IMG/VR virus record: IMGVR_UViG_2609459792_000007
Reading direction: 5' to 3' (one strand)
DNA length: 64,000 bases
Source of the DNA: a virus
Lineage: Duplodnaviria; Heunggongvirae; Uroviricota; Caudoviricetes
A program made the translations under genes and the position numbers. The notes under the pieces were generated by a model. That model searched no databases. It was not told the origin of the DNA and saw only the letters and a list, made by a program, of their open reading frames with translations. Numbering within the stretch: the first letter of the stretch is position 1; each line of letters starts with the position of its first letter. This document shows, in pieces, positions 22,903-45,671 of the stretch.

Positions 22903-23681
22903 AAATACAATGATAAGTATTTACTTACTTATCTTATATGTATAAGATGACTTTGTTTTCGTTGAGACGCGACTGTTTGAACTTAAATACAAGTGCAAAC
23001 GAAGAAGTCTATCTGGCAGTAGCCTAATAAGCCAAACACCAGCGAGGTCAGTTTCCAGCCTCGTTACCGAAATGGGACACACTGAGCGAGTGTGATTGCA
23101 GAACGCAGGAGGGAACATTCATGTTCCCTCCGATGAAGTAACAGAATGGGCGGTTGGTATATTTTCAACTCCATATGACTCCCGGATTCTTAGCCACTGA
23201 CCGCCCATTCTGTTACGTCATTTTGTTCAATTATGTCGTTTATACTGGGTTAAAAAGCGGCGACGTAGCCCGGCTGGTATGGTCAGCCAGCACACAACGT
23301 TGAGGCCATTACATTTTTATCAATTCTAAGGTTCTATTCACAGAGATACCGGCGAGCGTTGATATGTAACATGTTGGGCAAACATTCAATCGGAGTAGTG
23401 GCCTCAACGTTGTGAAAATAGGATAGTTGTGTAGGTTTAACCACTGTTGCCATTGGTACCTGTTTTCACAACAAATGATTCCATACATCACATTGTATAA
23501 ATTACAAAGTAGGTGCTGTCCTCAGAAACATCATCTACTTAAATAATTTGCCTTCTACTATTGAGCGAAGTCGAAAGCGTCTGGCACTAACGAAAAGTGC
23601 AAGTAGCGGTGCGTTTCCTGGCAGAAACTAACACCGCCGCGATTGGCACTGTTGAGTAATAAATACTGGCAGTGCTGAATT

Positions 23682-23756
23682 GATGGTGTAGCTCAGCGGT
23701 AGAGCAGTTGGCTGTTAACCAACTGGTCGGTGGTTCGAATCCACCCACCATCGCCA
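23682..23756 (+). tRNA. tRNA-Asn (GTT)
   Basis: Cloverleaf read by hand: acceptor GATGGTG/CACCATC, D-arm GCTC-AGCGGTA-GAGC, anticodon loop CTGTTAA, T-arm GGTGG-TTCGAAT-CCACC, CCA encoded. Confidence 0.85.
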
Positions 23757-23761
23757 ATTTA

Positions 23762-23848
23762 GGGGAGTTAGTCCGTAGAGGTAGCGGGGTAGACTGTAAA
23801 TCTACTGTCATGGAGACTCGGGTGGTTCGACTCCATCACTCCCCACCA
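23762..23848 (+). tRNA. tRNA-Tyr (GTA), long variable arm
   Basis: Acceptor GGGGAGT/ACTCCCC, anticodon stem-loop GTAGA-CTGTAAA-TCTAC, long variable arm, TTCGA T-loop, CCA encoded; D-arm pairing atypical. Confidence 0.7.
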
Positions 23849-23852
23849 AATT

Positions 23853-23928
23853 GCCGGTTTAGCTCAGTTGGTAGAGCGCCTGCCTTGTAAGCAGGATGTC
23901 AGCGGTTCGAGTCCGTTAACCGGCACCA
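23853..23928 (+). tRNA. tRNA-Thr (TGT)
   Basis: Acceptor GCCGGTT/AACCGGC, D-arm GCTC-AGTTGGTA-GAGC, anticodon loop CTTGTAA, T-loop TTCGAGT, CCA encoded. Confidence 0.85.
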
Positions 23929-24142
23929 ATACAACGATAAGATCATTACGGTTAATCGTCGTTCATGTGCACAATGACTGGTCGAAAGGTAGTGATCTTA
24001 CCGTTGTGGTGGATTCGCAGACTGATGCGATAGCTTTCTTGGATGTTAGGGAAATGCGGCCGCAAATCTTCCCTTTCGCGAGCGGTGATCGTCCGTAGTC
24101 CTAATTGGCTGCACCGTATGCCGGAGATTCAGTACCGGCCAC

Positions 24143-24229
24143 CACAACGGCCGGAGAGTAGGGAGCATGGTGCTCAAGCGGTCTTGAAAACCGTCCCATT
24201 GCGCAAGCGATGATGGTTCGATTCCATTA
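24143..24229 (+). tRNA. tRNA-Ser (TGA), class II
   Basis: Acceptor GGAGAGT/ACTCTCC, anticodon stem-loop GCGGT-CTTGAAA-ACCGT, long variable arm, T-loop TTCGATT, CCA encoded; D-arm atypical. Confidence 0.65.
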
Positions 24230-24396
24230 CTCTCCGCCAGACACAGCGTTGAGCGGTTTGGCCTTTTAATCAACTCGATTAAGACTCCGCTAACATAAAC
24301 CAGACCGCTCAACGCTGTGATAGACAATTACGGCAGACGTTCTTAACCATAGCTTGCTAACATCCTAGCAACACTTTTTTTCAGCGCAAAATTCAA

Positions 24397-24418
24397 AGGG
24401 GCTTCGGCCCCTTTTTTG
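24397..24418 (+). terminator. rho-independent terminator after the tRNA cluster
   Basis: AGGGGC-TTCG-GCCCCT followed by TTTTTT. Confidence 0.8.
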
Positions 24419-24460
24419 CAACTGAAAGAGTCAAGTCTACGAACTTTGTAGGGAGAAATA

Positions 24461-44616: not shown

Positions 44617-45671
44617 TATTTGCGAGTCTTTGCCTTGCGCAACTCTTCGAGAAGCGCCAGTTCTTCTTTACTCAACATGACCATTTTGCCTTCTTTTTCG
44701 TCAGGCACAACGTCGATAATGTCATCTTGATTCTCATCTGGGAGGCTATATTCCGTCTCATCATTATCGATTTTTGTTGATATTTGTGCCTGGCGTAACT
44801 TTGGCCGCCTATAGTGGATGACGAAGTAGACCGAGTTTCCGCGCTTAACTTCCGTGTAATCGAGATATCCTATCTCTCGCAGCTGTTCCATAGCCTTTCT
44901 TACCGTCGCATTCTGAGTAATAGTGCGACTTGTCAGATTAAGTCTGGCGCGTAAACGGGCTAGTGATATTGGTGCCGGATCAGGCGGCAAACTTTCAATA
45001 AAAGTATAAAGCGCCTGAGCGGATTCTTTTCTTGAGAGTTCGTTTATAGCCCGGAGTTGCAGAAGAACCTTTTTGTCGAACTGGTAGAGTTCGAAAATCT
45101 TGGGATCTGCTTTCAGTTCGACCGTATCGTGCTTGACACTATATTTTGCCGTTTGCACAAGATGCGTTACGTAAAACTCATCAGAGCCTTTGCTACGGAA
45201 CGAGATGGTATTTGTGGCAATACGGCTTAGCGAACTGTCCAGGCGTTTGCGTAACTTCGCTGATGACCTGGCGGTCGGAATGCCACACAGCCTTACAAAC
45301 TCAACGAACGGCAACGTGACAGTATCGCCAACGACCTTGTGTTTGGCAAACGCGTGGATTATTCCCACCCACGTTTTAAAGTCGTTATCCATATCAAGCC
45401 GAAGGCCAGAGATCCTTATGTCTTCGTACCCTTCGGCTTTTGCCAGAGACAGCTGTTTGAGTTCAGCAGAGGCATCCATAGAGACCATTTGCCCCTTTCT
45501 TCCTCTGGATGTCGATTTCAGCGTCGGAACGAAGAGGCCCAGACGCATCAAAGCAACAGGCTGAACAGTGTTATTAGTGTTAGGAACCAACGTAACAACT
45601 TCGCCTGTCTTTTTATCTGTTTCTGAAAATGCTTCAACGATCGCTATGTTTTTATTGCCGTTTTCGCTCAT
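44616..45671 (-). CDS. repA: plasmid replication initiator RepA (P1 RepA-like)
   Basis: 351 aa; [49 protein letters not shown] and [12 protein letters not shown] parallel P1 RepA as recalled; flanked on both sides by iterons. Confidence 0.85.

Follow-up and report, generated by a model that had tools for sequence, protein, structure and literature searches.

The 64,000-nucleotide (nt) stretch of DNA that was analysed, hereafter called the window (IMG/VR virus record IMGVR_UViG_2609459792_000007, Caudoviricetes), carries a cluster of four tRNA genes for asparagine, tyrosine, threonine and serine on its plus strand (Table 1). According to ARAGORN and Rfam, the first three genes are separated by 5 and 4 bp, in agreement with the initial annotation; the large spacer before tRNA-Ser that had been described there is real, with its size corrected from 214 bp to 224 bp (23929-24152). 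No tRNA-like fold had been seen there in the spacer, and it holds no canonical tRNA: relaxed searches (ARAGORN; Rfam at E<=10) returned no call. The spacer most likely represents a two-module noncoding RNA cassette, composed of a long hairpin (the stalk) and a tRNA-like domain (TLD), that forms one transcription unit with the tRNAs; that this cassette constitutes a conserved, unannotated structured RNA family without an Rfam match is well supported. The earlier suggestion of a small RNA and/or processing signals is thus backed by comparative evidence, according to which the spacer is one copy of a conserved structured cassette.

Table 1. Positions of the tRNA genes, cassette modules and other hairpins in the window.
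Feature	Position	Strand	Basis
Stalk copy 1, 5' of the tRNAs, arms CACAACGTTGAGGCCATTAC / GTAGTGGCCTCAACGTTGTG	23293-23414	+	inverted-repeat scan, fold
Short domain closed by GTTGTGAAAA / TTTTCACAAC, right after stalk copy 1	23409-23472	+	sequence reading
tRNA-Asn	23682-23756	+	ARAGORN, Rfam
tRNA-Tyr	23762-23848	+	ARAGORN, Rfam
tRNA-Thr	23853-23928	+	ARAGORN, Rfam
Stalk copy 2, first part of the spacer, arms ACAACGATAAGATCATTAC (23931-23949) / GTAGTGATCTTACCGTTGT (23989-24007)	23931-24007	+	fold, repeat scan
TLD	24005-24146	+	model R1, fold, RNAalifold
TLD acceptor-like stem UGUGGUG / CACCACA, 7 bp	24005-24011 / 24140-24146	+	fold, pair statistics
TLD linker GAU	24012-24014	+	sequence
TLD D-like hairpin UCGCA-GACUGA-UGCGA	24015-24030	+	fold
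TLD variable insert, 89 nt	24031-24119	+	sequence
TLD T-like hairpin GCCGG-AGAUUCAGUA-CCGGC	24120-24139	+	fold
Trailer ACGGCC, 6 nt, between TLD and tRNA-Ser	24147-24152	+	sequence
tRNA-Ser(UGA), class II	24153-24239	+	ARAGORN, Rfam
Stalk copy 3, solo, no TLD after it, arms CACAGCGTTGAGCGGTTTGG / CCAGACCGCTCAACGCTGTG	24242-24319	+	repeat scan, fold
Second, weaker hairpin with T run	~24354-24381	+	sequence
Intrinsic-terminator-like hairpin GGGGC-UUCG-GCCCC with T run	24393-24417	+	read from sequence

The TLD ends 6 nt short of tRNA-Ser and was found by a covariance model built from 60 TLD copies (model R1) with 84.3 bits (E = 2e-19), as the sole TLD match in the window; its three helices were all recovered both in the minimum-energy fold and by RNAalifold on five copies. 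TLD copies were gathered with a sequence pattern located in the 5' half of the domain, which resulted in 123 distinct sequences. Their acceptor-like stem UGUGGUG/CACCACA comprises 7 bp, with two more pairs in about two-thirds of the copies (in the window it extends to 12 bp, 24001-24012 with 24139-24150); next come a 3-nt linker (119 of the 123 copies have AAU), a D-like hairpin GCGCA-GGCUGA-UGCGC with a 5-bp stem and a 6-nt loop, a variable insert, and a T-like hairpin GCCGG-AGAUCAGCA-CCGGC that abuts the acceptor 3' strand with 0 nt between them, so that a 12-bp acceptor/T stack is formed in all parsed copies (the first base of the tail is A in 69 and C in 38 of the 123). This layout reproduces the geometry of a tRNA, with a 7-bp acceptor stem continuous with a 5-bp T stem and a D arm past a short linker; there is no anticodon arm, and the insert of 31-162 nt occupies the position of the anticodon and variable arms. 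GCUG(A) in the D-like loop and (U)CAGC in the T-like loop are complementary in 98% of the cells, a pairing that would give a tRNA-like elbow.

The helices of the domain are maintained by compensated exchanges. Among the 2091 pair cells of the 123 copies, 2005 are Watson-Crick and 64 G-U pairs, 5 are A-C and 17 other combinations, and double changes that preserve pairing occur at 12 of the 17 TLD pairs. In the 60-sequence alignment, 95.5% of the cells pair (28-59% in slid registers), four pairs (11 cells) are compensated, and the observed covariation score was reached by none of 500 shuffles.

The first module, the stalk, directly precedes the TLD. Its consensus reads CACAAC(A)GGUAAGAGCAYUG ... 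loop ... CAGUGCUCUUUCCGUUGUG, with a hypervariable loop that measured 5-177 nt in the duplex analysis, and its inner stem has been swapped among the copies for fully complementary alternatives, e.g. ACAACGAUAAGAUCAUUAC / GUAGUGAUCUUACCGUUGU in the window, ACAACGUUGAGAACACUGG / CCAGUGUUCUCAACGUUGU in the second unit of phage-plasmid D6 and ACUGUAACGACGCU / AGCGUCGUUACAGU at locus L018. Of 162 distinct upstream sequences, 151 form a duplex of 15 bp or more that terminates precisely at the TLD; 132 different 5' strands occur, and the mean duplex energy is −26.1 kcal/mol, compared with −17.4 kcal/mol for shuffled controls. Folding of 80 distinct stems as mini-hairpins, with 49 distinct inner 10-mers among them, yielded lengths of 17-23 bp (mode 19-20). 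The stalk is thus a duplex of approximately 20 bp (about two helical turns) that tolerates sequence change, in the size range of an RNase III substrate. These stems include 142 G-U pairs when read in the sense direction and 14 in the antisense direction, and the sense form was the more stable in 77 of 80 (p = 2e-14). Together with the compensatory changes, this one-sided excess of G-U over A-C combinations (64:5 in the TLD, 142 versus 14 in the stalk) shows that selection acts at the RNA level, on the strand of the element.

Three stalk copies were detected in the window. The one in the spacer (copy 2) starts 3 nt past tRNA-Thr and consists of 19 bp including 2 G-U pairs, with a loop of 39 nt and the base ACAAC/GUUGU; the spacer as a whole folds with z = −2.3. 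Its 3' end overlaps the 5' strand of the TLD acceptor stem by 3 nt (4 nt in the family consensus). Copy 1 (CACAACGUUGAGGCCAUUAC / GUAGUGGCCUCAACGUUGUG), located upstream of the tRNAs, is a repeat of 20 nt with 95% complementarity that forms a 20-bp stem in the minimum-energy fold and possesses the family base CACAAC...GTTGTG; the upstream unit 23285-23480 folds with z = −4.3. The short domain that follows it at the TLD position (GUUGUGAAAA / UUUUCACAAC) looks, from its sequence, like a degenerate TLD: a helix is formed near there in the minimum-energy fold, shifted by a few nt, and model R1 finds no TLD at 23409-23472. Copy 3 corresponds to the stem that had been noted directly after tRNA-Ser, which proved real, with arms of 20 nt (24242-24261 / 24300-24319, 95% complementary) separated by 38 nt and not by about 50 nt. 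As RNA it reaches −41.2 kcal/mol (z = −8.8; 0 of 200 shuffles did as well), and compared to D6 unit 2 (ACAACGTTGAG.../...CTCAACGTTGT) its base reveals a compensated A-U to G-C change. This post-tRNA-Ser hairpin (CACAGCGUUGAGCGGUUUGG / CCAGACCGCUCAACGCUGUG) is a paralogue of the first module of the cassette. The stalk hairpins were rejected as intrinsic terminators, as no U run follows them (GGTGGATT, AAAATAGG and ATAGACAA come next); a terminator scan listed the D-like hairpin only, at chance level (1 found versus 1.7 expected). The palindrome CCGGCC-N8-GGCCGG reported just before tRNA-Ser is present (24135-24154) and is composed of the 3' strand of the T-like hairpin plus the first acceptor C, facing the GGCC of the trailer plus the first two G of tRNA-Ser; since other copies carry different trailers, it is not conserved, and its consideration as a functional hairpin was abandoned in favor of an incidental origin.

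The part of the TLD that replaces the anticodon arm differs between lineages, while the scaffold is near-invariant across all lineages sampled. The inserts of the 123 copies fall into 38 clusters below 60% identity. The insert type of the window is also present in D6 and P7, in a Jedunavirus and in a Pantoea prophage, and among complete Escherichia coli genomes in 141 of 5426, on plasmids only and never annotated. A hairpin within this insert is common to the window and the Jedunavirus; its stem differs but is compensated (GGGAA.../...UUCCC versus AGCGA.../...UCGCU), and its loop (24055-24062) holds the self-complementary GCGGCCGC, which could allow loop-loop dimerisation. The idea that the insert has an extended antisense partner in E. 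coli was rejected: the 95-nt region matches P1/D6-type plasmids only, with no chromosomal site. A small protein encoded in the spacer was likewise dismissed, as only spurious open reading frames (ORFs) overlapping tRNAs are present and the variable centre excludes a conserved peptide.

The region around the spacer resembles P1/P7/D6-type phage-plasmids, with Escherichia phages CMS-2020a (98.7%) and Cyrano as best matches, and the spacer recurs at 99-100% identity on approximately 60 plasmids of E. coli and E. albertii, most of them about 110 kb in size. Its 3' 162 bp are 97.5% identical in P7 and D6; phages of Klebsiella and Escherichia that are unrelated, with genomes of 46-50 kb and about 73 kb, retain 75-90% identity, mostly at both ends. 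In all of these the element is intergenic and has the orientation of whatever tRNA lies near it. Between tRNA-Thr and tRNA-Ser, Cyrano carries no unit and the window one, whereas D6 and P7, with Thr-Ser intervals of 468 and 446 bp, respectively, carry two in tandem. Cyrano possesses an empty site of 8 bp (Thr-ACACAATT-Ser) and no tRNA-Tyr; a minus-strand coding sequence is annotated over its tRNA-Thr and tRNA-Ser genes. As Cyrano lacks the unit entirely, the latter is a dispensable, discrete module that is conserved where present, and unconserved filler, the outcome that would have spoken against the initial annotation, was not seen among the relatives.

Beyond these relatives, the scaffold is widely distributed; by the overall count, 68 bacterial species (Gamma- and Betaproteobacteria) have it. 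A 27-nt pattern occurs in at least 120 IMG/VR contigs, and a 25-nt pattern gave 69 matches in approximately 65 GTDB species representatives, among them Enterobacterales, Aeromonas, Marinobacterium, Oxalobacteraceae (Janthinobacterium, Massilia, Undibacterium) and Gallionellaceae; of the 69, those in a few metagenome-assembled genomes of other phyla possibly reflect contamination, one in Thalassotalea is probably due to chance, and one is a CRISPR spacer. A 36-nt scaffold probe matched 207 of 50,697 phage records, including phages of Klebsiella, Escherichia, Pseudomonas, Stenotrophomonas and Aeromonas, the lambdoid phages HK633 and HK629, Stx2-converting phages and P1. The same architecture was found in P7, D6, lambdoid and P22-like phages, in 47-kb Klebsiella and E. 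coli phages (on the strand of the nearby tRNAs), in 73-kb and other unrelated E. coli phages, and in a Jedunavirus. In the Undibacterium sp. locus L150 (~936-960), the conserved 5' part of the TLD is present as a spacer among GTTCACTGCCGCACAGGCAGCTTAGAAA repeats; these repeats can be read as a type I-F CRISPR array, in which case the host would target the conserved TLD sequence of phages.

The genomic contexts can be assigned to five classes: inside or beside tRNA clusters, as in the window; directly 3' of the late terminator tR' in lambdoid and P22-like phages (e.g. IME10); behind a promoter and adjoining a CI-like repressor gene (Stx2 phages, locus L046); upstream of terminase genes; and a unit that is followed at once by an intrinsic terminator (locus L143). 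In 194 distinct contexts, tRNA genes within 600 nt were co-oriented with the element in 70 instances and opposite in 0. No conserved protein partner is encoded nearby, the neighbourhoods differing completely between lineages; for distant taxa, the adjoining genes (terminase, gp3, RecT, dATP/dGTP diphosphohydrolase-like or Cro/CI-type) show that the setting is prophage.

Bacteriophage lambda itself (NC_001416) exhibits a stalk at 44,788-44,860, directly after tR', and behind it a degenerate TLD (44,788-44,946 for both together) that keeps a compensated closing helix GUUGUGCUG / CAGCACAAC (also read as GTTGTGCTG / CAGCACAAC); the annotated orf-64 (44,621-44,815) overlaps the start of the hairpin. 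At L046, a promoter match TTGACA-18-TACATT ends 12 nt 5' of the acceptor stem, and at L143 an intrinsic terminator begins 7 nt past the TLD; both arrangements speak for the TLD being able to act as an independent gene. At L046 (8018-8260) and in the Stx2a phage WGPS2 (L204, ~2495-2640) the TLD is positioned just downstream of the CI-like repressor gene. In Stx2-type prophages the promoter match is flanked by a 17-bp palindrome, and the TLD is followed by a boxA-like CGCTCTTTTTA; the TLD thereby occupies the position expected of an early-left operon leader.

Within the window, the cassette is embedded in an ORF-free stretch of 1.5 kb (22903-24460). On account of the missing ORFs and the order of the elements, this stretch reads as a single RNA operon composed of a stalk, tRNA-Asn, tRNA-Tyr, tRNA-Thr, a stalk with TLD, tRNA-Ser, a further stalk and terminators. 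The four longest local inverted repeats of the 64-kb window are all confined to 23133-24319, a clustering of hairpins that exceeds chance. The hairpin at 24393-24417 probably ends the tRNA/RNA operon: the Rfam search aligns 24393-24416 to the terminator hairpin of a small RNA (sRNA) model, and the simple terminator scan did not list it. In P1 and P7, orthologous tRNA genes reside in the C1-repressed ban operon, and by analogy we infer a similar arrangement for the window, though the upstream genes differ here.

Several further observations concern this operon. The longest local inverted repeat of the window (23133-23221; arms of 22 nt, 95% complementary, ATGAAGTAACAGAATGGGCGGT / ACCGCCCATTCTGTTACGTCAT) is situated upstream of the first stalk and is devoid of the CACAAC/GTTGTG base. 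The segment 23003-23095 (CTGGCAGTAGCCTAATAAGCCAAACACCAGCGAGGTC...) resembles a stretch that recurs 5' of the cassette in many other phages (...CTGGCAGTAGCCTAACGGCTAAACACCAGTGAGGTC...) and may constitute another conserved RNA module within the operon; a weak beta_tmRNA match at 22976-23078 (17 bits, E = 0.012; cut-off 84 bits) overlaps it. The top Rfam match of tRNA-Ser(UGA) is the tRNA-Sec model (46.6 bits, cut-off 47), which is an artefact of its class II structure, the ARAGORN anticodon being UGA; in the D6 record, the amino acid of the corresponding tRNA could not be called by tRNAscan-SE.

Among the known systems, the species 1 and 2 RNAs of phage T4 (rnaC and rnaD) are the closest analogues of the cassette. 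These RNAs measure 119 and 139 nt, and their genes stand head-to-tail with tRNA genes of the same orientation, at distances of 1-6 nt; the 3' end of rnaC is made up of a T-arm CCGGGTTCGAATCCCGG and an acceptor-like strand, that of rnaD is CCA, and the window unit, too, is located in a phage tRNA cluster, on the same strand and abutting tRNA genes. In contrast to the cassette, the T4 RNAs lack the CACAAC/GUUGUG stalk as well as the layout of conserved scaffold and variable insert, and the T-loop of rnaC is a canonical one of 7 nt compared with the 9 nt of the T-like loop in the TLD; a search of rnaC/rnaD with model R1, filters off, gave no match. We know of no function that has been established for rnaC and rnaD. 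In P1 (NC_005856), model R1 identified two genuine homologues, TLDs on the plus strand, at 69,813-69,923 (69.9 bits, E = 4e-17) and 70,074-70,206 (39.6 bits). Their trnT-tciA region is orthologous in position (P1ban/P2ban, then trnA, trnT ... tciABC, trnI, ban) but differs from the window in its insert sequences and in the lack of a tRNA-Ser there. The P1 record presents this region not as RNA but as the minus-strand ORFs plp ("putative lipoprotein") and upl ("unknown"), which may be mis-annotations.

Regarding its separate modules, the cassette resembles other structured RNAs. The RNase III stalks around 16S and 23S rRNA are duplexes of approximately 20 bp formed by the sequences flanking the embedded RNA, comparable to the 17-23 bp of the cassette stems; RNase III processing sites are reportedly present also in the lambda late transcript, to go by the title of Daniels et al. 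1988 (Virology 167:568; cited in PMC7547250). The mascRNA of MALAT1, the tRNA-like domain of tmRNA and the engineered "tRNA scaffolds" are tRNA-like elements processed by RNase P, with which the TLD shares the stack of 7 bp and 5 bp, the D-like hairpin past a short linker and a foreign RNA in place of the anticodon arm; it differs from them by its atypical T-like loop, the mostly missing encoded CCA and the lack of a match to the Rfam tRNA clan. ARAGORN found no tmRNA, and the only, weak beta_tmRNA match lies outside the spacer. The structured RNAs GOLLD and ROOL are associated with phages and prophages and are often located beside tRNA genes, and some of them carry a tRNA within their variable region. 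They are, however, Rfam-curated RNAs of 500-800 nt from other lineages, whereas the cassette measures approximately 220 nt and has a tRNA-shaped core.

The spacer and its hairpins were unmatched at E<=10 in Rfam 15 (including YrlA/Y RNA, GOLLD, ROOL, STnc100, AgvB, AsxR and C4), and at gathering score none of its families spans the element in a set of 20 diverse loci. The sRNAs of the Q-holin region (PasA, PasC, PasD, STnc100, AgvB, AsxR) share the lambdoid neighbourhood just upstream of the holin/lysozyme genes; identity with these was rejected, as they are Hfq-type sRNAs of approximately 84 nt that end in an intrinsic terminator and revealed no sequence match, and the scaffold probes had no match in one supplementary file of the paper on these sRNAs. 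No prior description of the cassette was found in the searchable literature, older subscription papers being outside its reach.

Some copies indicate where the cassette may have come from. In Massilia (L132, 4484-4670), a real tRNA-Gly flanked by CACAGC / GCUGUG is situated 5' of the TLD at the position of the stalk loop, with a tRNA-Pro on the 3' side. T-arm-like motifs were detected in 14 of 151 stalk loops (control stretches: 1 and 0). Twelve of these 14 motifs lie mostly 15-21 nt 5' of the TLD, immediately interior to the stalk's 3' arm, and some stalk loops contain a fragment resembling a CAT-anticodon arm. Based on these findings, the stalk looks like the paired leader and trailer of a tRNA that has itself been lost or replaced. 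At L148 (3702-3881), D-arm and T-arm motifs mark a tRNA-like sequence within the insert, and the cassette overall looks like a derivative of phage tRNA operons.

With moderate confidence, we interpret the cassette as the source of a processed, stable, trans-acting tRNA-like RNA. The size of the stalk is that of an RNase III substrate, while the 7+5-bp stack of the TLD and its elbow-side hairpins are features of RNase P substrates. As the last 4 nt of the stalk (3 in the window) are also the first nt of the acceptor strand, the two helices compete. In a long precursor, RNase III would cut the stalk and free the GUUGUG strand; the acceptor stem would form once the stalk is opened, and RNase P would then cut at the 5' end of the acceptor-like stem. 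The 3' end would be set by RNase P cleavage at tRNA-Ser and subsequent trimming by 3' exonucleases. The product would be a stable RNA of approximately 140 nt, a conserved tRNA-shaped scaffold with a lineage-specific insert, that acts in trans, and the stalk copies at 23293-23414 and 24242-24319 would punctuate the same operon. That the scaffold is conserved while the insert diversifies suggests that the partner in the cell is conserved and that the specificity varies. More tentatively, and rather as a possibility than an expectation, the copies in other phages may represent widespread unrecognised phage RNA genes, in which a near-universal, tRNA-shaped scaffold matured by host tRNA and rRNA enzymes displays a hypervariable payload; its trans-acting role could be, for instance, that of a regulator or of a decoy against defences that target tRNAs.

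Several points weigh against this interpretation. RNase III and RNase P cleavage as well as the stability of the RNA are deduced from geometry. The pattern used for gathering the copies limits the variation visible in the 5' half of the TLD and may inflate its apparent conservation. The T-like loop comprises 9-10 nt (AGAUCAGCA; variants of 8-13 nt) and is not the 7-nt UUCRANY T-loop, the tRNA covariance model gives the TLD no score, and ACCA follows the acceptor stem in 11 of 123 copies only. The kissing pair between D-like and T-like loop is near-invariant: 187 of 500 shuffles do equally well, and a Fisher test at the single varying position gave p = 0.045 for sequences that are not independent; the pair was therefore not retained as confirmed by covariation, being too invariant for this purpose. 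Furthermore, the inserts are weakly structured (median z −0.7) and could be tolerated filler instead of a payload, and Cyrano keeps its tRNAs without the unit, which is consequently not needed for tRNA expression.

The last two points would also fit a purely cis-acting punctuation, in which the elements provide signals for cleavage or stability (RNase III, RNase P, exonuclease blocks) that part one tRNA from the next and the tRNAs from the mRNA behind them, or that determine where an operon leader starts and how long it persists, the released pieces being functionless and the insert neutral. Such a role would agree with the location of the element in the leaders and intergenic parts of major operons (after tR' in lambda and IME10, in Stx2 phages and L046, at terminase genes, among tRNAs) and with the RNase III processing of late lambda RNA to which the title of Daniels et al. 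1988 refers. However, approximately 55 near-invariant scaffold nt across phages of Gamma- and Betaproteobacteria exceed what a cleavage signal needs, the TLD of L143 is succeeded at once by a terminator with nothing downstream to punctuate, and the ordinary tRNAs of the cluster already supply RNase P sites; we therefore regard this explanation as a serious but unlikely one. The trans-acting RNA is also preferred to an element that operates at the level of DNA, either as a recombination linker or as a MITE-like insertion with direct ACAAC repeats, whose hairpins would be mere DNA inverted repeats. The presence or absence of the unit among close relatives (the empty site of Cyrano versus the filled ATACAAC... 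/ ...CACAACGG), its copy number of 0, 1 or 2, and the swapped centres between conserved flanks (38 insert types) are what linker recombination would produce. The one-sided G-U versus A-C counts are unexpected from the symmetry of double-stranded DNA, however, and the 70 to 0 co-orientation with tRNA genes, the lack of a transposase or integrase as a consistent neighbour in the inspected neighbourhoods, and the misfit of CACAAC/GTTGTG to the integron attC cores RYYYAAC/GTTRRRY in a direct comparison render such an element improbable.

A decaying tRNA pseudogene or a rearrangement remnant without present function, corresponding to the degenerate tRNA that the initial annotation had considered, would account for the tRNA-like layout and for the T-arm and CAT-anticodon-arm fragments in some stalk loops, and the real tRNA in the Massilia stalk indeed points to a tRNA origin. 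Decay is nevertheless hard to reconcile with a scaffold that stays near-invariant from Enterobacterales to Oxalobacteraceae prophages while its centre is replaced, with helices kept by compensatory changes, and with the own promoter or terminator of some copies, and neither ARAGORN nor Rfam calls a tRNA in the region; this explanation has only the slightest probability in our view.

If the interpretation as a processed, trans-acting RNA is true, a conserved structured RNA would have been missed in some of the best-studied phages, behind the antisense ORFs plp and upl in P1, in the late leader of lambda and in the Stx2 phages. It would further offer a handle on a question open since the species 1 and 2 RNAs of T4, i.e. 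the non-tRNA content of phage tRNA clusters, and the genetically tractable hosts would make this question directly testable. The conservation of the scaffold would imply a conserved cellular partner, and the at least 38 unrelated inserts a diversifying or modular function; the cassette itself may serve as a ready-made unit for RNA expression and processing. On the more tentative view of a widespread class of phage RNA genes, phages, with P1, Stx phages and relatives of lambda and P22 as carriers of the cassette, would have used a "tRNA scaffold" long before RNA engineers did.

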